26,767 nt of DNA. Origin: Candidatus Firestoneibacteriota bacterium (GTDB lineage Bacteria > Oederibacteriota > D2-FULL-39-29 > JBDRBU01). The notes under the pieces are model-generated. The model saw only the letters and a program-made list of their open reading frames with translations, did not search any database and was not told the origin of the DNA. Where the stretch lies: positions 1 to 26,767 of the forward strand of contig JBDRBU010000022.1 in NCBI GenBank assembly GCA_043822305.1. The letters run 5' to 3'. The position numbers and the translations under genes were made by a program. Of the stretch, positions 1,036 through 22,662 are shown piece after piece; position 1 is the stretch's first letter, and every line of letters begins with the position of its first letter.

Positions 1036-2931
1036 ATGAATATTCACGCACTTCCATCAATAATTGCAGCAATAACCAATTTAACATTAGGAATCTTTGT
1101 TTATCTTAGAGGTAAAGGGAAAAAAATAAACTTACTGTTTGGCCTAATGAGTCTTGCCTATGCCTGGTGGAATTTTGGTGCTTTTATGCTTTACATTGCT
1201 CCAAATAAAGAATCTGTTTTATCTTTGTTCAGACCTACAAGTAGCGGCATGTGGTTTATTCCCCCCTTAACTTTTCACTTTATAATTCATCTGGGGAAAG
1301 ATAAAAGTAAAATATCTAAAATAATTTTAAGCATTTCATATCTTCTGGGTGTTATTTCACTTATTTCAAGCTGGGTTGTTAAAACTGAATTCATATTTTT
1401 TGAATATGGTAAATATCTTCCTAAGGCAAGTCTTCCTTTTGCTTTAATAAATATAAATATTGGAGTCGTAATTTATGGATTATATCTTTTAACTAAAAGA
1501 TATAAAAAATTAACATCGGCTATTGAACGTGTTCAGATAAAATATTTTTTCCTCGGAATAACAATTCTTTTTTTATGCAGTTTAACAGATATTCTTACTG
1601 GCTATAATATAAAAGTATATTCATTCGGTCAATTAGGAACTTTATTTTACTTAATGTGTGTGAGTTATTCTATTATAAGACATCGTTTATTTGATATAGA
1701 TATGGTTATTAATAAAATTATACTTTTTGTTTTATTTACTGTATTTATTGTTATATTTCATATTGGACTTATTAAGATTACATCTTATCTAGTAACTCCT
1801 CCATCGGCTAATTTTTGTTCTATTATTCTTCTTGTGTTTATTTTCTTCTTTACACCATTAAGATTCAAATTAAGCGACCTCATCGACCGTGTAGTTTACC
1901 ATGGCCGATACGATTATCAAAATATACTCCGTAATACATCTAAAGCATTAGTCAGCCTACTTAACTTGGAAGAATTATTAAATTATCTCACGACGACTAT
2001 GGCTAATGTCGTCGGGGTAAGAAAGGTATGTGTTTTATTAGAAAAGATACCGGGTAATTTTTCCATTCAGTCATCTTACGGCCTAGAAAATGAGCTAGTA
2101 AAAGATTATTCAATAAAGGTAAAAAACGGTATAGTTGGCTGGATGAAGAAAAAAAAGGATGTGTTTGTTAAAGAAGAGCAGGAAAGAGAACTTTCTCCAG
2201 AAGAATTTAAAGCAATATATGGAGACATAGAAAAGATAGGAGCGGATATAAGTATTCCTTTATTTTATAAAGAAAGATTGCTGGGTATTATTACCTTGGA
2301 TTCAAAAATTTCAGGCAAGATTTATAATCCGGCAGATATAGATATTCTTAACACCATCGCTTCTCAAACGGCTATTGCTTTAGAAAATGCCAGGATTTAT
2401 GATGAAGCTATAACTGATGGTTCAAGCGGGTTATATAATCATAAATATTTTATCTTTCGATTAAATAAAGAAGTAGAAAGAGCAAGAAGATATAACTTAC
2501 CACTTTCACTTCTTATGATGGATATAGACCATTTTAAGAATGTAAATGATAAATTTGGACATCTAGTGGGATCTATGGTTGTAAGAAAGATGGGTAAAAT
2601 CATTAAAGCACTCGTAAAGGAAGTAGATATTCCATGTCAGTATGGTGGAGAAGAATTTACAATTTTACTTCCACATACTGAGTTAGAAGAGGCTAAAGCA
2701 ACTGCCTATAAACTTAATAAAACAATACAGGATACAGAGTTTTCAGAAGAAAAGTCTATTTCTGTAAAAATAACTGTATCTATAGGAGTAAGTAGTTTAA
2801 GCGAAGACAATAAAGACAAAAATATCCCACAGGGACTTCCTTTGATCGCCCCTTTAGATTTTCTAAAGTTAGCTGATACGGCTTTATATAAAGCAAAAGA
2901 AAAAGGAAGAAATAAAGTTGAGGTAATGTAA
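1036..2931 (+). CDS. Membrane sensor (HisKA-7TM-like)-GAF-GGDEF protein with Hypr-type Ser substitution; candidate 3',3'-cGAMP synthase or degenerate diguanylate cyclase
   Basis: Multi-TM N-terminus, GAF (IPLFYKERLLGIITL...IALENAR), and GGDEF motifs DIDHFKNVND and GGEEF. Has GHLVGS instead of GHxxGD, QYGG instead of RYGG, and KEVD instead of RxxD. Confidence 0.9.
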   Translation: MNIHALPSIIAAITNLTLGIFVYLRGKGKKINLLFGLMSLAYAWWNFGAFMLYIAPNKESVLSLFRPTSSGMWFIPPLTFHFIIHLGKDKSKISKIILSISYLLGVISLISSWVVKTEFIFFEYGKYLPKASLPFALININIGVVIYGLYLLTKRYKKLTSAIERVQIKYFFLGITILFLCSLTDILTGYNIKVYSFGQLGTLFYLMCVSYSIIRHRLFDIDMVINKIILFVLFTVFIVIFHIGLIKITSYLVTPPSANFCSIILLVFIFFFTPLRFKLSDLIDRVVYHGRYDYQNILRNTSKALVSLLNLEELLNYLTTTMANVVGVRKVCVLLEKIPGNFSIQSSYGLENELVKDYSIKVKNGIVGWMKKKKDVFVKEEQERELSPEEFKAIYGDIEKIGADISIPLFYKERLLGIITLDSKISGKIYNPADIDILNTIASQTAIALENARIYDEAITDGSSGLYNHKYFIFRLNKEVERARRYNLPLSLLMMDIDHFKNVNDKFGHLVGSMVVRKMGKIIKALVKEVDIPCQYGGEEFTILLPHTELEEAKATAYKLNKTIQDTEFSEEKSISVKITVSIGVSSLSEDNKDKNIPQGLPLIAPLDFLKLADTALYKAKEKGRNKVEVM

Positions 2932-2933
2932 TT

Positions 2934-4820
2934 ATGAATATTTATTTATCCTCTTCTATAATTGGGGCCATAGTAAACTTAGGCTTAAGCATTTTTGTAT
3001 ATCTTAAAGGTAAGGGAAAAAAGATAAATATTGCATTTGCCTTGATGAGTCTTAGCGTTTGCATCTGGAATATTACAACTATTGGTTTCGTCCTTATAAA
3101 AGGGGAAAACACCCTTGAGTCTTTTCATCGTCTTATTGTACTTGGAATATATTTAATTCCTGCATTTACTTTTCATTTTCTGACTATCTTATCAAAAGCA
3201 AAAGGGAAAGTCGTTTCTTTATTATTAACACTTTCTTATATATTAAGTACAGGTTTATGGATTTCTAGTTTGTTAATAAAAACAGAATTTAAATATATAG
3301 ATGAAACAAAAAGATGGATGCCACTTCCAAATATTGTAAGTTTCTTTTTTATTGTAATTTTTATATTTTATATTAGCTATGGTCTTTATTTATTATTTAA
3401 AAGATATAAAGAAACCTCTTCACCTTTAGAAAAAACTCAAATAAGATATTTCCTTCTGGGGATCTCTTTTTTCTTTCTCGTTAGTTTAACTTCATTCCCT
3501 CATGTTTTTTGGAAGTTTAAAATCCCACCCTTAAGTAGTCTTGGCTGTGTTTTTTATAGTATTTGTGTATCTTATTCACTTGTCCGACATCGTTTATTTG
3601 ACATAGATGTCGTCATTAATAAAATCATTCTTTTTATTATTTTATGTGGTTCAATTATTATGTTTTATACTATATTTAACAAACTTACTTCTTCTATAAT
3701 AAATCCTACTTTGGCTAATTTTTCTTCTGCTTGTCTAATTATCTTTTTTTTATTTTTTACTCCTTTAAGATTTTGGTTAGGTAATGTTATCGACCGTGTC
3801 GTCTACCGCAATAAATACGATTATCAAAATATACTCCGTAATACATCTAAAACATTAGTCACCATGCTTGATTCAGAGGAATTATTAAATTATCTCACGA
3901 CCACTGTGGCTAATGTCGTCGGGGTAAGAAAGGTATGTGTTTTATTAGAAAAAACCCCTGGTAATTTTTCTATTCATTCATCATTTGGCCTAGAAAAAGA
4001 TATAGTAAAAAATTATTCAATAGAAGTAAAAAACGGTATAGTTGGCTGGATGAAGAAAAAAAAGGATGTGTTTGTTAAAGAAGAGCAGGAAAGAGATCTT
4101 CCTGAGGAAGAATTTAAAACAATATATAAAGATTTAGAAAAGATAGGAGCAAATGTAAGCATTCCTTTATTTTATAAAGAAAGATTGCTGGGTATTGCTA
4201 CCTTAGATTCAAAAATTTCAGGCAAGATTTATAATCCGGTAGATATAGATATTCTTAACACCATTGCCTCTCAAACTACTATTGCTTTAGAAAATGCCCG
4301 GCTTTATAATGAATCTATAACTGATGGTTTAACCGGATTACACAATCACAAATATTTTATTTTTAGATTAAATGAAGAAGTAGAAAGAGCAAGAAGATAT
4401 AAATTACCACTTTCACTTCTTATGATAGATGTAGACCATTTCAAGAATGTAAACGATAAATTTGGCCATCTGGCCGGAGATATGGTTTTAAGAAAGATGG
4501 GTAAAATTATTAAAGAATCTACAAGAACAATAGATATTCCATCTCGGTATGGTGGAGAAGAATTTGCAATTTTACTTCTACATGCCAAGTTAGAAGGGGC
4601 TAAAGTAATGGCCTATAAACTCAATAAGATAATAGCGGCTACAGAGTTTCTAATAGAAGAAAAGTCTATTCCTATAAAAATAACTGTATCTATAGGGATA
4701 AATAGTTTAAGCGAACATAAAAAGGACAGGGAGACCACATTAGATTTTCTAAAGTTAGCTGATATCGCTTTATATAAAGCAAAAGAAAACGGAAGAAACA
4801 GAGTAGAAACAACTATTTAA
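2934..4820 (+). CDS. Membrane sensor (HisKA-7TM-like)-GAF-GGDEF diguanylate cyclase, canonical
   Basis: DGLTGLHN, DVDHFKNVND, GHLAGD, RTID I-site (RxxD), RYGGEEF and ADIALYKAKENGRN all intact. Confidence 0.92.
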   Translation: MNIYLSSSIIGAIVNLGLSIFVYLKGKGKKINIAFALMSLSVCIWNITTIGFVLIKGENTLESFHRLIVLGIYLIPAFTFHFLTILSKAKGKVVSLLLTLSYILSTGLWISSLLIKTEFKYIDETKRWMPLPNIVSFFFIVIFIFYISYGLYLLFKRYKETSSPLEKTQIRYFLLGISFFFLVSLTSFPHVFWKFKIPPLSSLGCVFYSICVSYSLVRHRLFDIDVVINKIILFIILCGSIIMFYTIFNKLTSSIINPTLANFSSACLIIFFLFFTPLRFWLGNVIDRVVYRNKYDYQNILRNTSKTLVTMLDSEELLNYLTTTVANVVGVRKVCVLLEKTPGNFSIHSSFGLEKDIVKNYSIEVKNGIVGWMKKKKDVFVKEEQERDLPEEEFKTIYKDLEKIGANVSIPLFYKERLLGIATLDSKISGKIYNPVDIDILNTIASQTTIALENARLYNESITDGLTGLHNHKYFIFRLNEEVERARRYKLPLSLLMIDVDHFKNVNDKFGHLAGDMVLRKMGKIIKESTRTIDIPSRYGGEEFAILLLHAKLEGAKVMAYKLNKIIAATEFLIEEKSIPIKITVSIGINSLSEHKKDRETTLDFLKLADIALYKAKENGRNRVETTI

Positions 4821-4831
4821 AAATTGATTGC

Positions 4832-4860
4832 TTGACATTTATTATACAAAGTTATAAAAT
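4832..4860 (+). promoter_or_regulatory. Sigma70-type promoter for the HEAT/MshEN/ExbBD cluster
   Basis: TTGACA (4832-4837), 17 bp, TAAAAT (4855-4860). Confidence 0.6.
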
Positions 4861-4881
4861 AATAAAAAGCCTGATAAATCA

Positions 4882-4904
4882 CGCAGGCTAAAGCCTGCGA
4901 CTAC
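4882..4904 (-). repeat. GTAG-type REP-like palindrome
   Basis: Minus strand GTAGT-CGCAGGC-TTTA-GCCTGCG: GTAG tag followed by a GC-rich hairpin in AT-rich intergenic DNA. Confidence 0.65.
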
Positions 4905-4937
4905 CAAAAATTAACAAAAATTAAAAAAGGGGGTTAT

Positions 4938-5720
4938 ATGCGTTTTCTTATCACTTTAATTTTAATTCTTAGTACTACTCTGGTGGTTTTTGCTCAAGTA
5001 GATCTAGATATAGGAAAAAAGATTCAAAAGTATAAAGAAGATATAGAAAAGTTAAAAAAAGAGTTAGAAAATTCTGATCCTATTGTTCGAGCAGATGCAG
5101 CCTTAGCCTTAGGTGTTATAAAGAATCCAGAAGTTATTCCTTTTGTTAGAAAATTATTAAAAGATGTTGATGAAAATGTTAGATCTTCTACCATAAACTC
5201 CCTTTGTATATTGCAGGATAAAGGCTCAAGGAACGAAATCATTAAATTAGGACTATATGATAAATTTGGAATAGTTAGAGCATCAGCTGCCAGTGGGTTA
5301 GGTACTTTGCAAGATAAAATAGCCATTCCTGCTCTCAAAACTATAGCAAAACATGATAAAGAATCTATGGTTCGAATAACAGCGGCCATATCACTTAAAA
5401 GTTTTGGTGAAGATTGGGCCATTTCAATAATAAGAGAAACTATTAAAGATAGGAATTTAGATGTCCGTATCTATGCAGCCGCTATGTTATCTTCGCTGGG
5501 AGATTTATCTTGTGTTCCTATTGTTAGGCAAGGATTATCTTCTAAAGATAAAACAATACGAGGTGCATGTGTTAATGTCTTAGGACAAGTAGGTGGTGAG
5601 GATGCTATTTTGGATTTAAAATACATCTCTAAAAATGATGAAGAAGAAATTATTAGAGACACAGCCAGAAATAGCATAAGAGCCATAGAAGCAAGAATGA
5701 AGAAGAAAACTAAAGAGTAA
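4938..5720 (+). CDS. Exported HEAT-repeat (PBS-lyase-like) protein
   Basis: Signal peptide (MRFLITL...VFA-Q); repeats VRADAALALG, VRASAASGLG, VRITAAISL, VRIYAAAML; GGGGG RBS. Confidence 0.85.
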   Translation: MRFLITLILILSTTLVVFAQVDLDIGKKIQKYKEDIEKLKKELENSDPIVRADAALALGVIKNPEVIPFVRKLLKDVDENVRSSTINSLCILQDKGSRNEIIKLGLYDKFGIVRASAASGLGTLQDKIAIPALKTIAKHDKESMVRITAAISLKSFGEDWAISIIRETIKDRNLDVRIYAAAMLSSLGDLSCVPIVRQGLSSKDKTIRGACVNVLGQVGGEDAILDLKYISKNDEEEIIRDTARNSIRAIEARMKKKTKE

Positions 5721-5727
5721 AACAAAC

Positions 5728-5757
5728 AACCCCCTACCCCCTTTATTAAGGGGGAAT
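5728..5757. repeat. Short palindromic CCCCCT...AAGGGGG intergenic element
   Basis: aaccccctaCCCCCTT-tatt-AAGGGGGaat, perfect 7-bp stem at 5737-5754. Resembles a dispersed miniature repeat and lacks a U-tract. Confidence 0.5.
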
Positions 5758-5811
5758 TAAAAATTGGAGGGCTTTCTCACTGAATACTTACCAGAAAAGG
5801 AGGGTTATTTT

Positions 5812-6255
5812 ATGGCTAAATATCATATAGGAGAAATTTTAATACGGGAGGGATTAATTACATCGGAACAATTAAAGAATGCTATTGAAGAACAGAGAAG
5901 GACCGGACAAAGATTGGGTCGTGTCTTGATAGACAAAGGTTATGTTAAAGAAGATGCTTTACTAAAGGTTCTGGGCACTCAGTTAGATTCTATGATCATA
6001 AATACAGGTGCAACCCACAAGAAGGTAAATAAATACCTGGCTTTAGTTTTAGGGATTCAAAGTTTAAATATCATTTTACTTATAGGGATGTTTTTATTTA
6101 TTAGGAAATATTTAACCGGTGGATTAACTTTCTTAGTAGATGATGAGATGGTTTCATATTTAAGTTTGTTTATAGTAGGATGTATTGTTTTATTTATACT
6201 TTTTTCGTTTATTATACAACAAATCTACAGATTAAACAATAAAGAAGAATTATAG
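5812..6255 (+). CDS. Stand-alone MshEN-domain protein with two C-terminal TM helices (putative cyclic-dinucleotide receptor)
   Basis: Tandem MshEN motifs HIGEILIREGLITSEQLKNAIEEQ and RLGRVLIDKGYVKEDALLKVLGTQ. Start moved from 5764 to ATG 5812 because of AGGAGG at 5798-5803. Confidence 0.85.
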   Translation: MAKYHIGEILIREGLITSEQLKNAIEEQRRTGQRLGRVLIDKGYVKEDALLKVLGTQLDSMIINTGATHKKVNKYLALVLGIQSLNIILLIGMFLFIRKYLTGGLTFLVDDEMVSYLSLFIVGCIVLFILFSFIIQQIYRLNNKEEL

Positions 6256-6263
6256 GAGGAAAA

Positions 6264-8633
6264 GTGAAAATTAAAGCATTTTGTTGTTTATTTATAATAT
6301 GTTCACTATCTTTAGCAGAAGAAATCCTACAAGTACAAGAAGATGTTTATAAAGAAGAAGCAAAATGGCATTACAATATGGCTTTAGAAGTTTTAAGTAA
6401 GAAAGAAAATATAGCGGATAATCGTAAAGAGGCCATCAGAGTTTTGCATGAAATTATAGATTGTTATGATTCAACATATCTGGAAGGTTATGCTTTACTT
6501 ATAAAACTTTACAAAGAAGAAAAAGATGAGAAAAACTTAAAAGCAATAGAAGATAGATATAAAGCAAGAGTGGAAATTGAAAAAAAATTCAAGGAAGAAG
6601 AAGCCAAAGAGGTTTATAGTTCCAATAAAAACATTAATGAGACAATAATAAAATTAGGTTCGAATGATTTTAAGACAAGAGTTAAAGCTGGTAATGAATT
6701 ATTGAAATTGGATAAAGAAGCCGTAGATGGATTAATTAAATCTTTAAACAGTAAAAATATCTATAGGGCATGTTTATCCGCTAATATTCTGGGCAAGTTA
6801 AAAGATAAAAAGGCAATTATACCCTTAGGTGAAGTTTTAAAAAGTGGGTTTCCTTCTTTAAAGATTTCCGCCATAGAATCTTTGGGAAATATCAAAGACG
6901 AATCCAGTATATCATATTTAATAAATACTCTTTCTGATAGTTTTTATAGTCATTATGAAGGCGAATACAAAGTTAGAGAAAAAGCATCCGAAGTTTTAAT
7001 CAAGGTTTATAAAAATAAAGCACTTCCTTACTTACTAAAAGCTGTAAAAAATCCTTCTTTAAGATGGTACACATTAGAAACTCTCATTAAATTTAAACCA
7101 CTTCCAAAAGGCTTGGAAGATATATTAAATGAAGCCTTAGCTGATGGTGATGAAAAAATTCGTTTAACGGCAATTAAAGGGGTAAGTAATGTCCAAGATA
7201 AAAATAAATTTTTCAGTTCTTTTGTAAAATTAATCGCGGATAAAAATGCAACCATTCGCCATGAAGTAGTTAAATTATTAGCTGAAATACCAAAAAAAGA
7301 ATCTTTGGATTTACTGATTTTAGCCTTATCTGATTCTGATAAAGATGTGGTAAATGAATCTATAAAGGCTTTAGGAAAATTTAAATTAGATGATGTAAAA
7401 GAACTATTAGTTAAATTGGCCGAAGATGAAAAAATGGATGTAAGCATTAGATGGAATGCTATAAAATCGCTGGGAGAAAATTTTAAGAAATATGATATCT
7501 TGGAATTAAAAAAACTATTAGAAGATGAAAATATCTGGATAAAATCAGCAGCAGCTGCTGCCTTGGATTTTGAAAAAATAAACTACGAAGATATAACAAG
7601 TTCTATTTTAAAAAAGAGAAGAGAAAACTTAGATGCATTAGCTTTAAGGTTTTCATTAAGTTCTGCTAATGTATTTGAAGAAGGAAGGCAGGCATCTATT
7701 AGAAAGGGCTTGAATTTTTTGGTTAAAGAACAAGCAGAGGACGGCCATTTTAAAAGTAAATATTTTCCGCTTGGAGTAACACAATTAGCATTACTTTGTT
7801 TACTTAAGGAAGGGTGGAGCGAAGAAGACACTGTTGTTAAAAAAGGGCTAAAATATATGCTTGAACATGAACAGAAGGATGGTTCATATATTTCAAAAAG
7901 TGAAGTGGCTCTCGGAAATAATATAGAAAAACAAAGAAGTTCATACACTTCAGCCATAGCCATAATGGTCTTAGCTGCTACAAAAAATCAAAAATATACA
8001 GAAAATATAAAAAGGTCTATAGAGTTTTTAAAGAGCATTCAGGATAAAGAAGGTGGGTTTGGATATTTTAAAGATACTCGGAGTGATATGAGCTGTACTG
8101 AGTTTGCAATGTTAGGGTTGGATAGTGGTTATGACTTCTTAAAATTAGACAAAAAAGATGAACTATGGATGAAATTAACAAATTATCTTAAAAAACAACA
8201 GAATCCGGATGGAGGTTTTGGATATACAAAGGAATGGGAAAAAGCATCATACGGGAGCATGACGTCTGCTGGATTAACTTGCCAGATGTTAGCGCATATG
8301 GATTTAACTTCTTCTGATGTAAAAAACACCTTAAGTTGGGTTAGTAAAAATTATACATTGGATTCAAATCCAAAAGCGGATTCGGATAAGCATCATCCGG
8401 ATTACCTTAAAAGTTTAGCCATGGGTTTGCATTTAACTGGACTAAATAGTGTAATAGATGATAAAGGAAATATGCATTACTGGTATAAGGAACTAATAGA
8501 AAAACTTATAAAAGAGCAAAAATCAGAAGGTTTTTGGGAAGCAAAATATTATGAACCAGTACTATGTACTGAGTTTTATATTATGATCTTACAACTAAAA
8601 AAATTAGAAGAAGAAGTTATGGATATATTTTAA
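6264..8633 (+). CDS. Exported HEAT-repeat plus prenyltransferase/squalene-oxidase (QW) repeat protein
   Basis: Signal peptide, central HEAT repeats, and C-terminal QW-like repeats (FLVKEQAEDGHF, FLKSIQDKEGGFGY, YLKKQQNPDGGFGY, LIKEQKSEGFW). AGGAGG precedes the GTG start. Confidence 0.82.
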   Translation: MKIKAFCCLFIICSLSLAEEILQVQEDVYKEEAKWHYNMALEVLSKKENIADNRKEAIRVLHEIIDCYDSTYLEGYALLIKLYKEEKDEKNLKAIEDRYKARVEIEKKFKEEEAKEVYSSNKNINETIIKLGSNDFKTRVKAGNELLKLDKEAVDGLIKSLNSKNIYRACLSANILGKLKDKKAIIPLGEVLKSGFPSLKISAIESLGNIKDESSISYLINTLSDSFYSHYEGEYKVREKASEVLIKVYKNKALPYLLKAVKNPSLRWYTLETLIKFKPLPKGLEDILNEALADGDEKIRLTAIKGVSNVQDKNKFFSSFVKLIADKNATIRHEVVKLLAEIPKKESLDLLILALSDSDKDVVNESIKALGKFKLDDVKELLVKLAEDEKMDVSIRWNAIKSLGENFKKYDILELKKLLEDENIWIKSAAAAALDFEKINYEDITSSILKKRRENLDALALRFSLSSANVFEEGRQASIRKGLNFLVKEQAEDGHFKSKYFPLGVTQLALLCLLKEGWSEEDTVVKKGLKYMLEHEQKDGSYISKSEVALGNNIEKQRSSYTSAIAIMVLAATKNQKYTENIKRSIEFLKSIQDKEGGFGYFKDTRSDMSCTEFAMLGLDSGYDFLKLDKKDELWMKLTNYLKKQQNPDGGFGYTKEWEKASYGSMTSAGLTCQMLAHMDLTSSDVKNTLSWVSKNYTLDSNPKADSDKHHPDYLKSLAMGLHLTGLNSVIDDKGNMHYWYKELIEKLIKEQKSEGFWEAKYYEPVLCTEFYIMILQLKKLEEEVMDIF

Positions 8634-8647
8634 TTATGCTGGAGTAT

Positions 8648-11491
8648 ATGAAAAAAATATTCTTTTGGTTTGTAATTTTCAGTACTGTTATATTTATAAA
8701 TATCAATATTTTCTCAGCGACTAAGTCAGGGAACAAAACTAAAGGAGAAAGCATTATATGGCCTGAAGATGTTTATAAAGAAGCATCTGAATTTGCGGCT
8801 AAAGGTGATTATCAAAAAGCAGAAGAAGTTTATTTAAAATTGATTAAGGACTATCCAACCGTTTCATTAATACCATTTGTGAAATATGATTTAGGAGTTT
8901 GTTACTTATTACAAAAAAGGATTGATGAAGCACTTAAGATATTTGAAGAACTCCTTAAAGATAATACAAATATAAAGGATTTAGTATATACGTCTATGGC
9001 TGATATATACATAGAGCGAAAAAATTATGATAAAGCATTAGACTGTTACCAGAATGCTGATAGATCAGTTATAGGTGGTTCTGATAAAGCATCATATGGA
9101 AAGGCAAATTTATATCTTGTTTTAAAAAAGTATGCTGAAGCTGAAAAAGAAATTAGATTGTTTAAGGGCAGATTTCCTAAAAGCGATATTATTGACGAAG
9201 TGGATGTTTTACTTCTTCAAATCTATATATACAAAAAAGATTTTATAAACGCAAATATGCTTATTGAAGAGGTATATAAAAAGTTAGAAGAAAACCCTAA
9301 GGGAAATTTCACAATATTTAAATTAGCCGAGGCTTTATTTGATGGTGGTAATTTTGAACAAGCCATAGCATATTATAATAAAGTACTTAGCCAAGATAAA
9401 GTTTTGGAGATAGTGCAAAGGCAGATGAATATTATTTCAGAAAAGGTAAAGAATTTGGAAAAAAGCAGAGCCCCTAAAATAGAGCAAACAATAGCCTTTG
9501 CTAAAAAACAGGAAGTTGAGAAAAAAAATCTTTATGAAGAAGTTAAAGCAGGTAAAGACCTATCGCCATTAAGTTCATACAGAATAGGCCAATCTTATTT
9601 AAATATGAAAAAATTTAATGAGGCCAGAAAGAAATATAAAGAAATAATGATGTTATTTCCAAAAGATGAAATAGTAAAAGAAGCTGCTTACGGAATGGTG
9701 CTGAGTTATTTATTAGAAGGGAAATTTGAGGATTTTAAAAAAGATGCGCATAAATTCATGTCAGAATATTCTGAAGAGGCTTTAACTGATGATATTAAAT
9801 TAGCCATGATCGATGTATTTTTAAAAGAAAATAAGTTTAATGATATAATAATAGAATATAAAAAAGGGACATTTAAGTTTAAAACAAAAGAGTTACAGGA
9901 AGAAGGTTTGTGTAAAATAGGATTAGCCTATTATGGATTAAAGGATTATATGGCTTCATCAAATATTTTTGAAGATATTACTTCCAAATCCTCAAAGAGC
10001 AATACATTTGCATTATCTTTATTTTATCTGGGAAATTCTTATTATAATTTAAGCAAGTATGATGAAGCCATAAAAGTATATGATAAAATAATCAACGAGT
10101 ATCCAAAGGAGGAATTTACTAAAGATTCCATCTATCAGTTAGGTTTTTCTCATGCAAGAAAAGGAGCATATCCTAAGGCTGTTGAGATTTTAAATATGTT
10201 TTTACAAAAATATCCAAATGATGAGTTATCTCCTGATATTTTTTCTTCAATCGGAGATATTTATGTAGCCCAAGAAAAATTCAAAGAAGCCATAGAGACT
10301 TACGAGAAGGTGTTAAAAATTTATTCAAAATCAAAGAGTGCCCCAAGAATACATTCTCAAATAGGAATGTGTTATTTTAAACAGGAAAAATATGACGATA
10401 TGGTCAGAGCATATGAGTTACTCATAAGGAATTATCCACAAAGTGAGTTTTGTGCAGAAGCATTTTACTGGATAGGCTGGAAATTAATAAAAGAAGATAA
10501 AAAAGATGAAGGGATGAATAAATTTAATGAAGCAAAAAAATGGAAGGATACAGATACCGGCAGAGAAATTCAGTTTAAAATAGGCGAGTTTTATTATTCA
10601 GAGAAAGAATTTAAAAATGCAGAAAAAGAATATCTGGAAGTTATTAAAGAATCATCTAATTTGGAATCAATAGAAGGAGCCTTAGAAAGGTTAAGAGATA
10701 TTTATGAAGTAACAAGAAGAGTGGAAGAAGGGATAAAAGTATTTGAAGATTTTTCCAAGAAAAGAGCAGAAAATAAATTTGTGCTTGTCAGGATTAAGAT
10801 GGGAATTATACATCTGTATCTTAAACAAAAAAAAGTAGAAGCAGCCTTAGGTATCTGGAGGGAGATAAGTGGAGCTACCCCCAAAGAATATTTTACAGCA
10901 GTTGATTACTATACTGTAGGGAGTTATCTGGAAGGTCTTGGTAAAGAAAAAGAAGCATTGCCACTTTATTTGGAAATCATTTCAAGATATCCATCTGATA
11001 ATGCCGTTCCATATGCTTATTCAAGAGCAAGTTATATATATTTAAATTCAGGAAGAAAATCCGAGGAAATATATAATTTTATAAAACCTGCATTAAATAG
11101 ATACAAAGGGATAGAAGATATCCCTGAGATAAGTTTAGTGCTTGCCCAGTATAATTTTGAAAAAGGAAATACTGAAGAATCTATGAAGTATTACAAGAAA
11201 TCCATCAGTAAAGCAAAAGGAAAGATAGGGGCAGAGAGTTACTTCAGATTAGGGACAATTTTTTTTAAACAGAACAAGTATAAAGAAGCATTAACTGTTT
11301 ACTTACAGGTAGCCTTTGTGTATAATAAGTATAAAGATTTAGCAGAAGAATCCTTATTTAAAGCCGCTAGATGTGCTGAACTAATAGGTCAGAGAGAAGA
11401 AGCAAAGAAATATTACCAAGAGTTTGTAAAACAGTTTCCAAATAGTAAATATAAAAAAGATGCGGAAGCAAAATTAAAAGAATTAAAATAA
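8648..11491 (+). CDS. Large exported tetratricopeptide-repeat protein (CpoB/YbgF-BamD-like repeats)
   Basis: Many TPRs ending in YPxS/FPxS (e.g. LFYLGNSYYNLSKYDEAIKVYDKIINEYPK). Signal peptide from MKKIFF with GGAG RBS; alternative start at 8636. Confidence 0.87.
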   Translation: MKKIFFWFVIFSTVIFININIFSATKSGNKTKGESIIWPEDVYKEASEFAAKGDYQKAEEVYLKLIKDYPTVSLIPFVKYDLGVCYLLQKRIDEALKIFEELLKDNTNIKDLVYTSMADIYIERKNYDKALDCYQNADRSVIGGSDKASYGKANLYLVLKKYAEAEKEIRLFKGRFPKSDIIDEVDVLLLQIYIYKKDFINANMLIEEVYKKLEENPKGNFTIFKLAEALFDGGNFEQAIAYYNKVLSQDKVLEIVQRQMNIISEKVKNLEKSRAPKIEQTIAFAKKQEVEKKNLYEEVKAGKDLSPLSSYRIGQSYLNMKKFNEARKKYKEIMMLFPKDEIVKEAAYGMVLSYLLEGKFEDFKKDAHKFMSEYSEEALTDDIKLAMIDVFLKENKFNDIIIEYKKGTFKFKTKELQEEGLCKIGLAYYGLKDYMASSNIFEDITSKSSKSNTFALSLFYLGNSYYNLSKYDEAIKVYDKIINEYPKEEFTKDSIYQLGFSHARKGAYPKAVEILNMFLQKYPNDELSPDIFSSIGDIYVAQEKFKEAIETYEKVLKIYSKSKSAPRIHSQIGMCYFKQEKYDDMVRAYELLIRNYPQSEFCAEAFYWIGWKLIKEDKKDEGMNKFNEAKKWKDTDTGREIQFKIGEFYYSEKEFKNAEKEYLEVIKESSNLESIEGALERLRDIYEVTRRVEEGIKVFEDFSKKRAENKFVLVRIKMGIIHLYLKQKKVEAALGIWREISGATPKEYFTAVDYYTVGSYLEGLGKEKEALPLYLEIISRYPSDNAVPYAYSRASYIYLNSGRKSEEIYNFIKPALNRYKGIEDIPEISLVLAQYNFEKGNTEESMKYYKKSISKAKGKIGAESYFRLGTIFFKQNKYKEALTVYLQVAFVYNKYKDLAEESLFKAARCAELIGQREEAKKYYQEFVKQFPNSKYKKDAEAKLKELK

Positions 11492-11506
11492 AAAAGGAGG
11501 GGAAAG

Positions 11507-12274
11507 ATGCGTAAAAAGGTATTGGTCATAGTTTTAAGTTTGGCCGTGATATTTTTGTGTATGCAGGTTTCAACTGTAATTAATGCTCAGGAAAAAGGAG
11601 TCGAGTCTGGATTAGGGGCAAAACAGCTTACATTGTTTGGATTTCTTAAGGGAGGTGGCCCTGTATTTTTAATTATTGTCGGGTGTTCAATGTTTACCAT
11701 AAGCGTAATTATAGAGAGATTTTTGTATTTTAAAAGATTAAAAACATTAGGAGGAGAAAAACAGTTTATAGAAACAATATTAAAGACACAAAATATTAAA
11801 CAATCAATAGCCTTATGTGATAGAACATCAGGGGTGGTTCCAAGGGTCCTAAAAGTAGTGCTGGATAATTATGATAAAGGAGTAAATAAGGAAAAATTAG
11901 AAGGGGAAATAGAAACACAGGTAATAAGCGAAACTATAGGTATGGAAAAATTTTTGCCTCAGTTAGATACAATGGTAACATTAACTCCGTTACTTGGTTT
12001 ATTTGGAACGGTTATAGGTATGATAAAATCTTTCAATGTTGTAGCCGCTATGGGCATGGGAAAGCCAGAAATGTTAGCCGGAGGTATAGCCGAAGCATTA
12101 ATAAATACAGCCGGCGGTTTAGCCGTAGCTATTCCAGCATTATTTTTTTATAACTATCTTTCTGGTAAAAAAGAAACATATCTTTTAGAGATTGAAAAAG
12201 GAGTTAGTAAGTTGATACTTCAAATAGAGAAATTTAAACGAGTAGAACAACAGCAACCTCCACAGCCAAAGTAA
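11507..12274 (+). CDS. exbB: MotA/TolQ/ExbB proton-channel protein
   Basis: IIERF, PLLGLFGTVIGMIKSF and AGGIAEALINTAGGLAVAIPA motifs. Confidence 0.93.
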   Translation: MRKKVLVIVLSLAVIFLCMQVSTVINAQEKGVESGLGAKQLTLFGFLKGGGPVFLIIVGCSMFTISVIIERFLYFKRLKTLGGEKQFIETILKTQNIKQSIALCDRTSGVVPRVLKVVLDNYDKGVNKEKLEGEIETQVISETIGMEKFLPQLDTMVTLTPLLGLFGTVIGMIKSFNVVAAMGMGKPEMLAGGIAEALINTAGGLAVAIPALFFYNYLSGKKETYLLEIEKGVSKLILQIEKFKRVEQQQPPQPK

Positions 12275-12293
12275 ATGTAAGGAGGATAAATTA

Positions 12294-12704
12294 ATGAGGT
12301 TTATAAGAAGAGTTCCTAAAAAAGGTAGAGTAGAGCTTATTCCACTGATAGATACAATGTTAATGTTGTTAATATTTTATATGAGTTTTTCCACATTTGC
12401 CGAGATGGAATTAGAATATGGAGTTAAAGTACCAGCAGCAGATGAATCAGGGAAATGGAAAAAAAGTCCAGATCAGCTGATAATAAATATACCATCAGCC
12501 GGAGAAATATTAATAAGCAAGGAAAAGTATGATCTGGATAGCTTGGAGAGATTGTTAAACAATCTTGTAAGATCAAATTCTAAAATTAATGTAGTAATAA
12601 GAGGAGATAAGAATCTGTATTACAAGGAGATTTCAAAAATATTATCTATATGCTCGAGAAACAGCATATGGAATATAACATTTGCTACATTAGAAGGTGA
12701 ATAA
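12294..12704 (+). CDS. exbD: ExbD/TolR protein, copy 1
   Basis: LIPLIDTMLMLLIFYM TM helix with conserved Asp; VVIRGDKNLYY periplasmic motif. Confidence 0.9.
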   Translation: MRFIRRVPKKGRVELIPLIDTMLMLLIFYMSFSTFAEMELEYGVKVPAADESGKWKKSPDQLIINIPSAGEILISKEKYDLDSLERLLNNLVRSNSKINVVIRGDKNLYYKEISKILSICSRNSIWNITFATLEGE

Positions 12705-12706
12705 AA

Positions 12707-13111
12707 ATGAGACTAAAAAAAAGAAAAACTTATAAAAGAGGAAGAATAGAATTAATTCCCTTAATAGATACAATTCTCATGCTTCTTATATTTTATATGT
12801 CATTTGGAAAATTAGTTAAGGAAGAAAGAAAACTTGAAGCTAGTTTGCCTGCTTATGCATCAGATACATCATCAGAGATAAGTAGTTCGATAACAGTTGA
12901 AGTAACAGGAGGGGGTAAACTAATTGTTAATGATGAAGAATATACTCTTGAGGGTTTTTCAAATATGTTAAGCGGACTTTCATTAGTTTCTGAGACAGTT
13001 TCAATAGTTTTAAAAGGCAAAGAAAATATATTTTATCAAGATATAATAGATGCATTAAATGCGTGTGCTAGAAATGGAATTAAAAATGTTTCTTTTGTCC
13101 CTCTGGAGTAA
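12707..13111 (+). CDS. exbD: ExbD/TolR protein, copy 2
   Basis: LIPLIDTILMLLIFYM with conserved Asp; YQDIIDALNACARNGIKNVSF. Confidence 0.9.
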   Translation: MRLKKRKTYKRGRIELIPLIDTILMLLIFYMSFGKLVKEERKLEASLPAYASDTSSEISSSITVEVTGGGKLIVNDEEYTLEGFSNMLSGLSLVSETVSIVLKGKENIFYQDIIDALNACARNGIKNVSFVPLE

Positions 13112-14154
13112 TGAAATACATCATATTTACCTTTCTAATATTAGGGTTTATTTATGCAGATGATAGAATTTGTGCTGTAGATTTTATAGAGATTTCATTA
13201 GCCAGGTCAAGATTAGAACATCAGATAATATTAGAAGGTAAGATAAAAAATAAAAGTAATAATACTTTAGAAAAAGTAAGTCTTCAGCTAGTATGTTTAA
13301 ATTATGATTTAACAGTAATAAAAGAGTCTACGCCATATGAAATAAAAGACCTATCTCCCTATTTTAGTAAAAATTTTAAGATAGTAATTAAACAGTGCCC
13401 GTTTTTTAATGCTTATAAAATTTTAGTAAAGTATTCTGCTCATGATTTTCTTCAAGAATTTTCTTATCATGCCTCTGACCTGGGAAGTTTTCCACAACTT
13501 GAAGCAAAAGAACTAATAAAAAACGATGTTTCTTTAATGATTTTAAGCCATTATCTAGATGAAAAAACTTTAAATCTGTTTGTTAAAAATGAAGGAGATT
13601 TAGTTGCAGATGAGACCTCCGTCTTAATGGAATTTTATAATAAGAAACAAAATTTAATTAAAGAAATCATCGTATTATTAGAAGATGGTAAAGTTAAAGG
13701 TGGTGAAATAAGAGGTTTTAAAGTAAATATTAATCCGCCTAATTATACTTACTATGGGATTTCTTTAAAATTTAGCACCTTAGAAAAAGTTTTAGAAAAA
13801 ATCCCGGAAGTATCAAAAGAACTAAAGCATGAATACGAAGATAAAGAATATGGGGAATTTACTTTAGATTCTGTTGTAGAGATATCTAAATGTAGATTTA
13901 AAAAACTCCCTGATGGGTCATTAGAAGTATTAGGCAAGATACGAAATGGTAAGGATAATCCTATTAAAAATAACAAAATCGCATTTTATCTTTTAGATAA
14001 AGACAACAAAGAGATTGCCGTAAAATATTTAAATTCGGAAGAAGTTATAAAGTCAAAGGAGATTGAAGATTTTAAAATAAACTTTACATTCGACTTTAAA
14101 TGTTCTAATTATAAATACGAAATAAAATATGATGAAATTTTACCAAAAGAATGA
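13111..14154 (+). CDS. Exported protein with three FxLYD-like beta-sandwich repeats
   Basis: TAATG coupling to exbD2; signal peptide; repeats GKIKNKS...LVCLN, VKNEG...MEFYN and GKIRNGK...FYLLD. Confidence 0.7.
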   Translation: MKYIIFTFLILGFIYADDRICAVDFIEISLARSRLEHQIILEGKIKNKSNNTLEKVSLQLVCLNYDLTVIKESTPYEIKDLSPYFSKNFKIVIKQCPFFNAYKILVKYSAHDFLQEFSYHASDLGSFPQLEAKELIKNDVSLMILSHYLDEKTLNLFVKNEGDLVADETSVLMEFYNKKQNLIKEIIVLLEDGKVKGGEIRGFKVNINPPNYTYYGISLKFSTLEKVLEKIPEVSKELKHEYEDKEYGEFTLDSVVEISKCRFKKLPDGSLEVLGKIRNGKDNPIKNNKIAFYLLDKDNKEIAVKYLNSEEVIKSKEIEDFKINFTFDFKCSNYKYEIKYDEILPKE

Positions 14155-14170
14155 AATATCTAAGTTACAT

Positions 14171-15388
14171 TTACGGGCCAACGGTAACGAGTTTTAATTT
14201 ATCATCTGGCAGGAGTTTGTTTGCAAAACCCACAATATCTTTGTTGGTAATTTTTTCAACTTCCATTATAATTTCTTCTATGGTTAAATATTTTTCTCTA
14301 TAAAATTCGCATCTTAAAAGTTTTATCATCCTGTTTAAGGTATTTTCCAGTCCTAAGACCAAATTCCCCTTAATTTGTTCTTTAACTTTATGCAATTCTT
14401 TCTCTAAAACTCCTTTACTCTTGATATCTTTAAATTCTTGCAAAACTATATTAATAAGTTCATTTAACTTTTGTTTGTCTGTGGCAGCATATACTATAAA
14501 AATACCAGTATCAAGATAACAATCATAAAAAGAACTTACACTATAAGCAAGTCCTCTTTTTTCCCTAACCTCTTGAAATAAATGCGAACTCATTGAACCG
14601 CCTAAAATATTATTTAAAAGAATTAGGCTATATTTATCATCATCATTATAAGAAATACCTTTTGTGCCAAGACAAACATGAACTTGTTTAAATTCCTTTT
14701 CTTCCTTCTTGTTTTCAAAATTAAAAGACGGAGAAGTTATCTTAAAGTCAAATTCTTTTTTCTCCCATTTGCCAAAATACTTTTCAACAAGATTAAATAT
14801 ATCAGCGCTTTTTAAATTCCCGGCTAAAGAGATAATTGTGTTATTTGGTGAAAAAAATATTTTTAAATATTCAAAAATATTTTTTCTATCAAAATTCCCT
14901 GTAGTTTCTTTTGAGCCTAATATCGAATGTCCAAGCGGATGACTATCAAACAAATTTTTCATAAAAACATCCAGAGTATACTCATCAGGTGTATCTAAAT
15001 ACATTTTTATTTCTTCAAATATTACATCTTTTTCTTTTTTAATATCTTCTATTTTAAATTTTGAATTTAAAAGCATTTCAGAAAGGAGTTCTAAAACATC
15101 TGGCAGGTATGTATCTACCATTTTTACATAAAAACATGTATATTCTTTTCCGGTAAAAGCATCAACATGCGTTCCCATTAAATCGAATTTTTCAGCAATA
15201 TTCAATGCTGTTAATTTTTCTGTCCCTTGAAATAGCATATGCTCAATAAAATGAGAAATACCTTCTTGATTCTTTGATTCATATCTTGAACCCGCTCTAA
15301 TTAAAATCCCTAAACTTATTGAACGAACATAAGGAACTTCTTCGCAAACAATAGTTAGACCGGAGGAAAGGACTTTTTTACTGTACAT
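14171..15388 (-). CDS. M16 (pitrilysin-family) zinc peptidase
   Basis: HFIEHMLFQGT inverted HxxEH motif; GGSMSSHLFQEVREKRGLAYSV; usual position downstream of pnp. Confidence 0.95.
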   Translation of the reverse strand: MYSKKVLSSGLTIVCEEVPYVRSISLGILIRAGSRYESKNQEGISHFIEHMLFQGTEKLTALNIAEKFDLMGTHVDAFTGKEYTCFYVKMVDTYLPDVLELLSEMLLNSKFKIEDIKKEKDVIFEEIKMYLDTPDEYTLDVFMKNLFDSHPLGHSILGSKETTGNFDRKNIFEYLKIFFSPNNTIISLAGNLKSADIFNLVEKYFGKWEKKEFDFKITSPSFNFENKKEEKEFKQVHVCLGTKGISYNDDDKYSLILLNNILGGSMSSHLFQEVREKRGLAYSVSSFYDCYLDTGIFIVYAATDKQKLNELINIVLQEFKDIKSKGVLEKELHKVKEQIKGNLVLGLENTLNRMIKLLRCEFYREKYLTIEEIIMEVEKITNKDIVGFANKLLPDDKLKLVTVGP

Positions 15389-15389
15389 A

Positions 15390-17492
15390 TTAACTCTTGT
15401 TTTCTGTTTCTTGGGAAGATTTTAATGCTTCTTTTCTGCTTAACTTTAGCCGGCCAAGCTTATCAATTTCTATAACTTTAACTAAAACTTCTTCTCCTTC
15501 TTTTAAAACATCTTCAACTCGGTTTATCCTTTTATCTGCAATCTCGGAAATATGAACCAGCCCATCCTGACCAGGTAGTATTTCAACAAATGCTCCAAAA
15601 TCTGTTATCTTCCTTACTTTACCCGAATAAATTTTACCAACTTCTGCCTCTTGAGTTAGATTTTTAATTATAGCAATAGCTTTTTGCACTAACTCATTGT
15701 TAACGCCTGAAATATTAATAACACCATCTGCTTCTATATTTATTTCAACTCCAGTTTCTTCTACTATCTTCTTAATCGTCTTGCCTCCCTGTCCTATAAC
15801 ATCCTTTATCTTATCTGGATTTATCTTTAACGATATTATCTTTGGTGCATATAATGAGATTGAATCTCTTGGTTTTATTATCGCTTTATTCATCTCGTTT
15901 AAAATAATTCGTCTTGCTTCTTTAGCTTGAAATAAAGATTTCTCAAGTATATCTATTGAAACTCCATCAACTTTTACATCCATCTGTATAGCCGTTATAC
16001 CATCTTCTGTTCCCGCGATTTTAAAATCCATATCGCCAAAATGGTCTTCTGCACCAGCAATATCAGTTAAAGTGACAAACTTATCTTTTTCTTTAATCAG
16101 CCCTATGGATATACCCGCAACAGGTTTTGTTATAGGAACACCTGCATCCATTAAAGACAAACTCCCTCCACATACTGTGGCCATAGATGAAGAACCATTT
16201 GATTCCAAAATATCTGAGACTATATTTACAACATATGGAAATTTTTCTTTGGGCGGAATTACAGCCAGTAATGCTTTCTCAGCAAGTGCACCATGTCCAA
16301 TTTCTCTTCTACCCGGTCCTCTAACAGGCTTCACATCCCCTGTGGCTAATGGAGGAAAATTATAATGAAGCATGTATCTCTTTTTACTCTCGCCTTCAAG
16401 GTCATCTAAAATTTGAGCATCATCTTCCGTGCCAAGTGTTGTAATAACCAATGCTTGAGTTTGCCCCCTTGAAAATAAAGCAGAACCATGTGTCCTTGGA
16501 AGAACCCCTATTTCGCATTTTATTTCTCTTATTTCATCTAATTTTCTACCATCAGGTCTTATCCCTCTTTCAACTATATTTTCCCTTACATTTTGGGCTT
16601 CCATCAAATCTAATTGTATTTTTATTTCCATTTCTTTATCTTTAAAATCTGGTAAAACTTTTTGCAATATTTCTTCTTTAATTTCCTGAATTTGAACTAG
16701 TCGTTGTTTTTTATCTTGGATAGTTTCTACTTCGGATAATCTTTGTGAAGCAGTTTCTTTTAGAATATTTTTGAGGTTCTCATCAAGATTAAAGAATGTG
16801 TATTTTTTCTCTGGTTTTTGTACTTTTTTACTTAATTCCTCTTGAATCCTTATTAATTCATACGACGGTTCTTTTGCAAGATTTATGGCTGCTAAAATTT
16901 CTTCTTCTTTTACTTCCTTCGTCCCGGCTTCAAGCATAACAACTCCAAGTTTTGAGTAAACAACTACAATATCCAAAACACTTTCTTCCAATTCGCTAAA
17001 AGTTGGGTTAATTATATATCTATCCTTTATCTTTCCTACTCTAACACTACCAATAGGCCCGTTAAAAGGAATATTTGTAATACTTAAGGCAGCAGAAGTT
17101 CCTATTAAACCTAAAACATCCGCCTCGTTCTGAAGATCATATGAAAGCACAAAATTTATCACTTGAATTTCATTCATAAGATCAGGGGAAAATAATGGCC
17201 TGATACTTCTATCAATCATTCTTGCAGAAAGAATTTCCCTCTCTTTTGGTCTACCTTCTCTTTTAAAAAAACCACCTGGAATTTTTCCGGCAGAATATGT
17301 TCTTTCCTTATATTCAACAGTTAGAGGCAAGGCATTAATCTTTTCTGCTTTAGCCTCAGAAGAAGAAACAGACGACAAAACAACAGTATCTCCATACCTG
17401 ACCAGACAAGAACCTTCTGCCAGTTTTGCAACTTTACCCGTAGAGATTATTATCTCCCTTCCACCTATATTTACTTTTTCTTCTATATTCAT
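15390..17492 (-). CDS. pnp: Polyribonucleotide nucleotidyltransferase (PNPase)
   Basis: [45 protein letters not shown] and GDMDFK motifs; C-terminal KH and S1 domains. Confidence 0.99.
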
Positions 17493-17496
17493 ATCA

Positions 17497-17763
17497 TCAC
17501 TTCCTTAGGTTTAAACTTTCTATTGATTTTTTATATCTATTAAAATCCTTTCCTTTAATATATTCGAGTAACTTTCTTCTTTCCCCGACAAGTTTAAGCA
17601 AACCTCTTCTAGAACTGTGGTCTTTCTTATGGGTCTTAAAATGCTCTGTTAAATAACTTATCCTTGATGTTAAAATCGCAATCTGAACTTCCGGAGAACC
17701 TGTATCCTTTTCATGTTTTCTAAATTTTACCATTATATTCTGCTTTTGTCCCTTATCTAACAT
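17497..17763 (-). CDS. rpsO: 30S ribosomal protein S15
   Basis: [13 protein letters not shown]...[16 protein letters not shown]; rpsO-pnp synteny. Confidence 0.99.
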
Positions 17764-17815
17764 ATGTTACCCCCTTATAAAATAGGAACACATCCCATTT
17801 TTTTACTTTTCTATT

Positions 17816-17874
17816 TGGAGTGCATTGACTGTGTCAATGCTTATTATGGAGTCAGGGTCGTCCCTGACCCTGAC
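17816..17874 (+). repeat. Two tandem TGGAG-tagged perfect hairpins upstream of rpsO
   Basis: TGGAGT-GCATTGAC-tgt-GTCAATGC (17816-17840) and TGGA-GTCAGGGTC-gtccct-GACCCTGAC (17847-17874). Confidence 0.6.
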
Positions 17875-17910
17875 ATACCTTCAAAATGACAAATCACAAT
17901 GACGGTGTTC

Positions 17911-17927
17911 AGAGGCTGTGTCGCAAT
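17911..17927 (+). repeat. Left inverted repeat of the accessory region
   Basis: AGAGGCTGTGTCGCAAT; 16/17 match to the reverse complement of 26526-26542. Confidence 0.65.
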
Positions 17928-18193: not shown

Positions 18194-18219
18194 TACATTA
18201 TATCAAATATTAACTTTTT
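18194..18219 (+). repeat. 26-bp direct repeat, copy 1 (promoter -10 and spacer without the consensus -35)
   Basis: TACATTATATCAAATATTAACTTTTT, identical to 22623-22648. Confidence 0.8.
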
Positions 18220-19085: not shown

Positions 19086-19103
19086 AATGTTTGTCCTCCT
19101 CTT

Positions 19104-22653: not shown

Positions 22654-22662
22654 GAATTTTTT

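Follow-up and report, generated by a model that had tools for sequence, protein, structure and literature searches.

A possible orphan Tol/Ton-type stator operon with a putative MshEN-type c-di-GMP receptor in a Candidatus Firestoneibacteriota contig

In a 26,767-nt contig from a Candidatus Firestoneibacteriota bacterium (JBDRBU010000022.1, positions 1 to 26,767 of the forward strand, G+C ~30%; the whole stretch is referred to here as the window), ten open reading frames (ORFs), all on the + strand, span positions 1036-14154. With domains supplied by Pfam and NCBIfam, they encode, in order, two GGDEF cyclases, a secreted HEAT-repeat protein, a small protein of the membrane that has an MshE-type motif for cyclic di-GMP (c-di-GMP, a second messenger) followed by two transmembrane helices (MshEN-2TM), a secreted HEAT-repeat protein ending in an alpha/alpha toroid (HEAT-QW), a large TPR protein, an ExbB/TolQ-type subunit, two ExbD/TolR paralogues and a secreted protein with an FxLYD-type domain. 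Our leading interpretation, which we hold tentatively and regard as close to an even call, is an orphan Tol/Ton-type proton-driven stator operon whose motor is tied to c-di-GMP through MshEN-2TM. Flagella, the import of nutrients, the upkeep of the outer membrane and gliding are powered by proton-driven 5:2 motors, the flagellar stator is braked by c-di-GMP and, for many orphan tolQ/tolR loci, no output is known to us. An operon in which a stator comes with a putative c-di-GMP receptor of its own near a cyclase would offer a handle on both the function and the regulation of such orphan motors. As read from the genes, a built-in receptor of this predicted kind is a so far unreported feature of such a motor locus.

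The original prediction had described this stretch as ten co-directional genes belonging to a cyclic-dinucleotide-gated envelope machine driven by the proton motive force, and all ten, with the named domains, were recovered in the ORF list and in the Pfam and NCBIfam matches. The spacers between the genes measured, in order, 2, 117, 91, 8, 2, 15, 19, 2 and −1 bp, which agrees with the gaps of 20 bp or less expected from MshEN onward (8, 2, 15, 19, 2 and −1 bp), and GGAGG-type ribosome-binding sites accompany this tight packing from MshEN-2TM to the last gene. Judged by this arrangement, the genes between 5812 and 14154 are likely packed as one operon, with the HEAT gene at 4938 perhaps its start, while the two cyclase genes probably form their own transcription unit, apart from the motor genes. 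The best intergenic promoter-like sites, each agreeing with the consensus at 11 of 12 positions, lie at 992-1020, 5′ of cyclase 1, and at 4832-4860, 5′ of the HEAT gene. The latter belongs to a feature on the + strand (4832..4900) in which TTGACA, 17 nt and TAAAAT are followed by a 7-bp GC-rich hairpin (4882-4899). This feature probably marks where a separate transcription unit begins, and co-transcription of the cyclases with the motor genes is doubtful because the 117-bp gap carries both of these elements. We treat the promoter-like sites as leads only, because their frequency in the window is no higher than in shuffled sequence (61 observed, 70.3 expected). The spacer of the HEAT and MshEN genes contains a second GC-rich hairpin; neither of the two hairpins was significantly more stable than shuffled sequences (z −1.69 and −1.60), and both are devoid of a U-tract on the + strand. 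An Rfam scan of the whole window returned no riboswitch or other RNA family, and a tRNA gene search of the same stretch returned no gene.

The motor itself would be built from the ExbB/TolQ-type subunit (11507..12274, +; MotA_ExbB PF01618, E 9.1e-31), which has a signal-peptide-like N-terminal extension, and from the two ExbD/TolR paralogues (12294..12704, +, ExbD PF02472, E 1.7e-21; and 12707..13111, +, E 2.3e-17), here ExbD1 and ExbD2, which are 34.6% identical over 130 residues and each carry an Asp in the transmembrane helix. In ExbB, GLFGTVIG and GIAEALINTAGGL line up with their counterparts in E. coli TolQ (8odt/9kpz), the Asp of the ExbD1 motif IPLID is matched to the TolR Asp (VPLLD in the alignment with TolR 9ddm), and the IPLID motif is also found in ExbD2. 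These alignments with solved TolQ and TolR bear out the earlier statement that the ExbB Thr/Glu and ExbD Asp residues are intact, and we take the aligned positions to be the functional channel residues. By homology with the solved TolQR and ExbBD complexes, we expect an ExbB pentamer around an ExbD1-ExbD2 heterodimer. The best named model for ExbB is tolQ, at 91 bits against an equivalog cut-off of 221; the exbB model reached 60.5 bits against 206, and the tolR model 58.7 bits against 127.3 (NF and TIGR scores are those of NCBIfam models). The ExbB and ExbD scores thus lie far under the equivalog cut-offs of exbB, tolQ, exbD and tolR, and because of this ExbB is assigned at the family level only.

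MshEN-2TM (5812..6255, +, 147 aa), the protein on which a link to c-di-GMP would depend, most likely starts at the ATG at 5812, which has a GGAGG ribosome-binding site, and less likely at the TTG at 5764. It consists of a cytoplasmic 53-residue domain with the MshE-type motif, followed by two transmembrane helices (79-97 and 117-135) joined by an acidic periplasmic loop, and it is the sole cytoplasm-facing regulatory element of the operon. The NF053729 match (74.3 bits, cut-off 38) covers residues 22-73 of the TTG-start form, and the N-terminal 55 residues align with Vibrio cholerae MshE (5htl, E 7.8e-10) as well as with the PilF c-di-GMP domains. As in the receptors MshE, PilF and NfrB, the domain has two 24-residue motifs with a 5-residue spacer between them. 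Motif 1 starts with HIG, its His facing R9 of MshE, and motif 2 retains RLG. In MshEN-2TM the domain is joined only to the two-helix membrane hairpin, not to an ATPase or glycosyltransferase, and has His for Arg in motif 1. An MshE R9A/D12A double mutant is described in PMC12943098 as having reduced c-di-GMP binding. Together, the profile match and the alignments support the presence of a genuine MshEN-type c-di-GMP motif in MshEN-2TM, binding itself being predicted.

With E values up to 0.001, an exhaustive HMMER search returned 5377 proteins that carry the MshEN motif. Of the 150 matches listed, the only ones besides the query to be full length, membrane part included, were P0041 and P0049 (38-40% identity), and three further short motif matches that we fetched had no membrane part. 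The closest relative of MshEN-2TM is P0031 (54% identity), which brings the known family to four members (the query, P0031, P0041 and P0049). In the alignment of these four, Q83, R98, Y100, D110, Y116 and S132 are invariant; what is kept is a Gln in helix 1, a Ser in helix 2 and an acidic loop with F-x-R-x-Y followed by F-L-x-D. The kept polar residues of both helices, together with the acidic loop, argue for a conserved partner in the membrane, and the pattern would fit the docking of MshEN-2TM on such a partner. A complex prediction of ExbB with MshEN-2TM, run with a 4-row alignment and without controls, scored 0.00 against a mark of 0.32, a result that counts neither for nor against binding.

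Both of the cyclase genes named in the original prediction encode GGDEF proteins, but only the second has the canonical GD/RxxD/GGEEF set. Cyclase 1 (1036..2931, +; Pfam GGDEF E 4.6e-37, with HisKA_7TM and GAF) is a 7TM-GAF-GGDEF protein, and cyclase 2 (2934..4820, +; Pfam GGDEF E 1.5e-44) has the layout (7TM)-GAF-GGDEF; the two are 62.6% identical over 636 aligned positions. Cyclase 2 carries GHLAGD, an RTID I-site (RxxD) and GGEEF, and by these motifs is predicted to be a canonical diguanylate cyclase. Cyclase 1 combines a Ser at the Hypr specificity position (GHLVGS) with GGEEF, and has KEVD in place of the RxxD I-site. Its top PDB match is the Hypr GGDEF enzyme GacA (6d9m, E 7.8e-31), in which GHLVGS falls on GHLVGS with Ser348. 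At the cross-dimer position (R304Y), which we assigned by eye from the wording of PMC6456294, cyclase 1 has NHK and GacA NYR. Of the three Hypr features, cyclase 1 therefore has the Ser, and misses both GGDE[F/Y] and the cross-dimer Tyr. According to PMC6456294, natural Ser/Thr enzymes are exclusively GGDE[F/Y], and a Ser/GGEEF pairing was inactive when engineered. Because cyclase 1 has that very pairing, cGAMP synthesis by it is unsupported; with GGEEF, a His at the cross-dimer place and the I-site Arg lost, a role as a paralogue that is non-catalytic or atypical is more likely for it than one as a cGAMP synthase. The suggestion that the machine is fed by locally made c-di-GMP or cGAMP is accordingly retained for c-di-GMP, with the full motif set of cyclase 2 behind it, and dropped for cGAMP. 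Standing in tandem with a canonical paralogue, cyclase 1 may be a natural exception to the Ser/GGEEF rule or a regulatory pseudo-enzyme.

There are precedents for both halves of the proposed arrangement. The YcgR brake acts on MotA, a component of a 5:2 motor. YcgR, which is mentioned in PMC8669469, is a precedent for c-di-GMP control of a MotA-family stator, and the same paper describes the MshEN effector NfrB as served by a dedicated cyclase, DgcJ. The window has, in the corresponding role, a neighbouring cyclase, cyclase 2, which would be a plausible local source of c-di-GMP. In the literature that we searched we found nothing joining MshEN and ExbB, and, judged from titles and abstract openings, no c-di-GMP receptor for TolQ/TolR is described there.

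We then considered the partners through which such a motor would work. None of the 20 window proteins matched the TonB_C, TolA, TolB, OmpA/Pal or TonB-dependent receptor families, in line with the earlier observation that these are missing. The locus shares with Tol-Pal its best-scoring named models (tolQ/tolR) and conserved channel residues, and has TPR units that resemble YbgF/CpoB at the level of the repeat, but differs from it in having no TolA, TolB or Pal (0 of 20 proteins), scores below the equivalog level and two TolR paralogues. With the Ton system it has in common the ExbB family and the transmembrane Asp of ExbD, while TonB and a receptor were not found in the window.

Many Ton loci outside the proteobacteria have, as a normal feature, a TPR gene and two paralogues of ExbD. 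The locus could encode an ordinary Ton/Tol energiser, with TonB or TolA and the outer-membrane partners encoded elsewhere, and with MshEN-2TM, HEAT and HEAT-QW as mere neighbours doing a separate job; we consider this somewhat unlikely. The genes FSU_2396-2403 of Fibrobacter succinogenes have the order OmpA-TPR-TPR-...-ExbB-ExbD-ExbD-TonB (PMC6851124), bioRxiv 10.1101/2025.11.18.689179 gives two ExbDs for Bacteroidota TonB loci (the PG0785 locus), and tonB is often unlinked to exbBD according to PMC12204202. These FCB-type Ton loci resemble the window in placing one or more TPR genes beside exbB and two exbD genes; their last gene, however, is of the TonB family and they serve transport that depends on TonB, whereas the window has no TonB family match. 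The energiser explanation also gains from the relatives of HEAT-QW, which are found away from ExbBD in all three loci recovered (see below). It has to contend with the gaps of 2-19 bp and the ribosome-binding sites that run from MshEN-2TM through the last gene, which make functional independence of these genes less likely. Moreover, the tonB slot 3′ of the second exbD holds a different secreted protein, and the ExbB and ExbD scores, as stated above, fall far short of the equivalog cut-offs of exbB, tolQ, exbD and tolR.

The protein in that slot is a secreted orphan of 347 aa (13111..14154, +), whose gene occupies the place that tonB or a vWA transducer has in related loci. It opens with a short signal-peptide-like segment, not a membrane helix, and contains no transmembrane segment; the FxLYD-like domain of the original prediction was found (NF038353, 39.6 bits, cut-off 23, residues 269-328, a C-terminal beta-sandwich). 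A weak DUF2393 match covers residues 30-110. The N-terminus has no His motif, and the protein matches neither the vWA domain nor the TonB family. From the look of the sequence, our impression is of a three-domain protein; self-BLAST revealed no internal repeats, an AF2 model made without an alignment had a pLDDT of 32.8, and the leads from the Atlas, DUF3426/CARDB-like beta-sandwich proteins, were sub-threshold (scores up to 0.89, TM up to 0.34).

The nearest published parallel is a set of uncharacterised loci in PVC bacteria with the order TPR, tolQ-like, tolR, tolR and a transducer in which a helix with SHLS/His and a disordered linker lead to a vWA domain (TMH-vWA), as set out in PMC12204202. 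The window resembles them in gene order (8636-13111), in its dissimilar tolR pair, in having one more envelope gene and in the absence of TonB/TolA. It differs in that the PVC loci end in the membrane-anchored vWA transducer, whereas the window ends in the secreted FxLYD protein, without a helix, SHLS/His or vWA, and it adds the MshEN-2TM, HEAT and HEAT-QW genes. The host, too, may lie outside the PVC group: the nearest HEAT-QW relative in the GTDB loci, at 45% identity, comes from a Candidatus Firestonebacteria metagenome-assembled genome (MAG). The window locus is a variant of the published TPR-tolQ-tolR-tolR class in another, poorly sampled lineage; its core gene order is already published, and its accessory set (MshEN-2TM, HEAT-QW and the orphan last gene) is new. 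The original prediction had named ExbBD/TPR/QW clusters of PVC bacteria as known, and this was confirmed in part: the TPR-motor loci are published (PMC12204202), and for the QW part what we found were look-alikes that are mostly planctomycetal.

One TolQ-like protein, two TolR-like proteins and TPR-rich envelope proteins are also what the window has in common with the Agl-Glt machines of Myxococcus and Bdellovibrio, whose defining components include GltG/GltJ and the outer-membrane Glt barrels. A gliding or adhesion machine of this type, in which TolQ and two TolR proteins move TPR-rich periplasmic proteins under cyclic-dinucleotide control, would account for the one tolQ-like gene, the two tolR-like genes and the large TPR protein. 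Furthermore, a Hypr GGDEF protein governs gliding and aglQ expression in Bdellovibrio (PMC9140294), and the PVC loci are proposed to serve gliding in PMC12204202. We nevertheless give this explanation little credence: the TonB-like GltG/GltJ, outer-membrane barrel genes and cytoplasmic Glt-like parts were not found in the window, and cyclase 1 misses two of the three Hypr features.

The remaining products of the operon point to the periplasm. Signal-peptide-like N-termini are present on HEAT, HEAT-QW, ExbB and the last protein, and the hydrophobic start of the TPR protein is longer (signal peptide or anchor); because HEAT, HEAT-QW, TPR and the last protein have such N-termini, the partners of the motor are probably periplasmic. 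The HEAT protein (4938..5720, +, 260 aa; HEAT_2 E 3.6e-34) has a hydrophobic stretch at residues 3-21, read as a signal peptide. The TPR protein (8636..11491, +, 951 aa), with hydrophobic residues 5-23, matches TPR families and carries YbgF/CpoB-like TIGR02795 repeats on nine stretches as well as BamD-like TPR units; the TIGR02795 resemblance is at the level of the repeat, the protein being 951 aa long against ~260 aa for CpoB. HEAT-QW (6264..8633, +) combines Pfam HEAT repeats with a C-terminal toroid of the squalene-cyclase/prenyltransferase type, and has a profile match to squalene-hopene cyclase 2sqc (E 3.4e-10). Its AF2 model is all-helical, with a pLDDT of 80.4. The nearest look-alikes of the toroid in the ESM Atlas are planctomycetal QW proteins (TM 0.80-0.84), some of them DUF4159 fusions, and a fold search with the HEAT-QW model was dominated by HEAT/armadillo proteins and was uninformative on the toroid.

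HEAT-QW is rare, with 29 matches among 7998 scored candidates. Besides the query, four of them (P0002-P0005, 35-60% identity) span both halves, and the other 24 cover the HEAT part only. P0002, the closest HEAT-QW relative, and P0031, the closest relative of MshEN-2TM, come from the same source, and for each of them the longest contig given is 10,982 bases; this shared size hints that the MshEN-2TM and HEAT-QW pair may be conserved in one closer relative. To examine neighbourhoods, GTDB genome contigs were scanned with the HEAT-QW alignment, which gave 37 pattern matches, of which three were confirmed (L001, L002 and L003). In L001 (the Candidatus Firestonebacteria MAG, 45% identity; 10004-21906) the genes after HEAT-QW encode, in order, MoxR, DUF58, a double-anchor VWA protein of the BatA type and a second VWA protein. 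In L002 (a 'Deltaproteobacteria' MAG, 39%; 1610-8814) it is followed by a weakly conserved secreted protein, PilB and PilT, and in L003 (an Elusimicrobiales MAG, 33%; 2233-15523) by a weakly conserved secreted protein and PilB-PilT, plus PilC, pilins and PilX. The secreted proteins 3′ of HEAT-QW in L002 and L003 share 22% identity (E 8e-7). An ExbB, ExbD, MshEN-2TM or GGDEF gene was found in none of the three loci. Since all three lack ExbBD, linkage of HEAT-QW to the motor is not conserved at 33-45% identity. HEAT-QW thus accompanies envelope machines of three kinds (motor, type IV pilus and MoxR/BatA), which suggests a shared scaffold role. As side observations, the HEAT-QW relatives of L002 and L003 head type IV pilus operons, a PorV/PorQ-like outer-membrane protein gene lies immediately upstream in L003, and in L001 a 1002-aa protein without a family match comes after the second VWA protein.

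These neighbourhoods bear on a further alternative, that MshEN-2TM and HEAT-QW form a c-di-GMP-responsive envelope module, ancestrally serving machines of the type IV pilus or secretion type and captured beside the motor, its input acting on the HEAT-QW scaffold. The order HEAT-QW, weakly conserved secreted protein, PilB-PilT recurs in L002 and L003; in both, PilB carries the NF053729 motif above the cut-off two genes from HEAT-QW (two of the three distant loci), and the MshEN motif of the window is 46-47% identical to the first 60 residues of those PilBs. The adjacency of PilB and HEAT-QW in two loci could be a coincidence, however, because MshEN-bearing PilB is common. The window also contains no pilus or secretion genes and the HEAT-QW of L001 is found without any MshEN protein. 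We regard a captured module as decidedly unlikely.

Returning to the stator interpretation, we propose that the genes between 5812 and 14154, perhaps from the HEAT gene at 4938, would be a single operon that encodes a proton-driven stator of the Tol/Ton type, an orphan one. Alongside the stator genes lie those of secreted proteins built as solenoids or beta-sandwiches (HEAT, HEAT-QW, TPR and FxLYD), which would be the periplasmic working parts that replace TonB/TolA. The position of HEAT-QW two genes from a PilB with the c-di-GMP motif, in two of the three more distant loci, also speaks in favour of this interpretation. MshEN-2TM would sit in the membrane beside the stator, where its binding of c-di-GMP could alter the assembly or activity of the motor; in this way the motor might tie a function of the cell surface or envelope (adhesion, movement akin to gliding or remodelling of the outer layer) to the sessile/motile signal. 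This gated mechanism is a hypothesis whose basis is that the genes are adjacent in the one window and probably in one relative, and that the MshEN protein switches the motor is something we infer purely.

Several findings weigh against this interpretation. A His takes the R9 position in three of the four MshEN-2TM family members, and the fourth is without that position. Between the cyclases and the motor block there is the 117-bp gap, which has a promoter-like site of its own. Among 4107 candidates no homologue of the last protein was found, not even in the closest relative, and without a membrane helix and a His motif this protein cannot act like TonB, so that TonB-style coupling to the stator is impossible for it. 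The search for TonB/TolA covered the 26.8-kb window, and a conventional tonB or tolA could be encoded elsewhere in the genome. Lastly, all three GTDB loci with HEAT-QW have other neighbours (type IV pilus genes in two, MoxR-DUF58-BatA/VWA in one), and no relative with an MshEN gene beside exbBD was seen among these HEAT-QW-anchored loci. The original prediction would be refuted if relatives did not have the MshEN and cyclase genes linked to exbBD; approached from the HEAT-QW side, such linkage was not conserved at 33-45% identity (0 of 3 loci).

A more specific version of the stator interpretation seems unlikely to us as it stands, and is worth formulating: MshEN-2TM could act as a c-di-GMP-operated clutch. 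Its helices, which carry the invariant Gln and Ser, would attach to the ExbB pentamer where TonB/TolA does in other bacteria, or close to that site, and its cytoplasmic four-helix c-di-GMP domain would switch the coupling of the motor to a TonB-less scaffold of TPR, HEAT-QW and FxLYD proteins. If true, the Ton/Tol class of motors would thereby gain its first member gated by a second messenger.

We also considered anti-phage defence built on a MotAB/ExbBD-like motor, as in Zorya. The only point in its favour is a 5:2-type motor with unusual partners. None of the ten proteins matched the PADLOC models beyond generic HEAT-repeat matches, and nuclease, helicase or other effector domains were not found in them; the defence reading, to which we attach almost no credence, was rejected.

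The rest of the window encodes proteins on the opposite strand. An MFS-type transporter ORF of 287 aa (90-953, −) matches profile positions 10-243 of 347 and is diverged or shorter than typical. At the other side, genes for an M16 peptidase, polynucleotide phosphorylase and ribosomal protein S15 (14171-17763, −) converge on the end of the operon, with 16 bp between the last operon gene and the stop of the M16 gene. A second co-directional cluster of envelope-type genes (18291-26535, −) includes genes for a 264-aa protein that is anchored at its N-terminus and carries HEAT repeats at its C-terminus, a 324-aa protein that matches beta-propellers weakly, and a 1290-aa protein in which the heparinase II/III N-terminal domain, an alpha/alpha toroid, was recognised. 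The same cluster contains two secreted paralogues without a family match (19104-20300, −, and 21620-22552, −), whose N-terminal 129 residues are 90% identical, after which they diverge fully. The 310-aa paralogue ends near GYGLMQ and is followed, with one stop between, by a 99-aa ORF in another frame (21305-21604), an arrangement that might represent a split gene.

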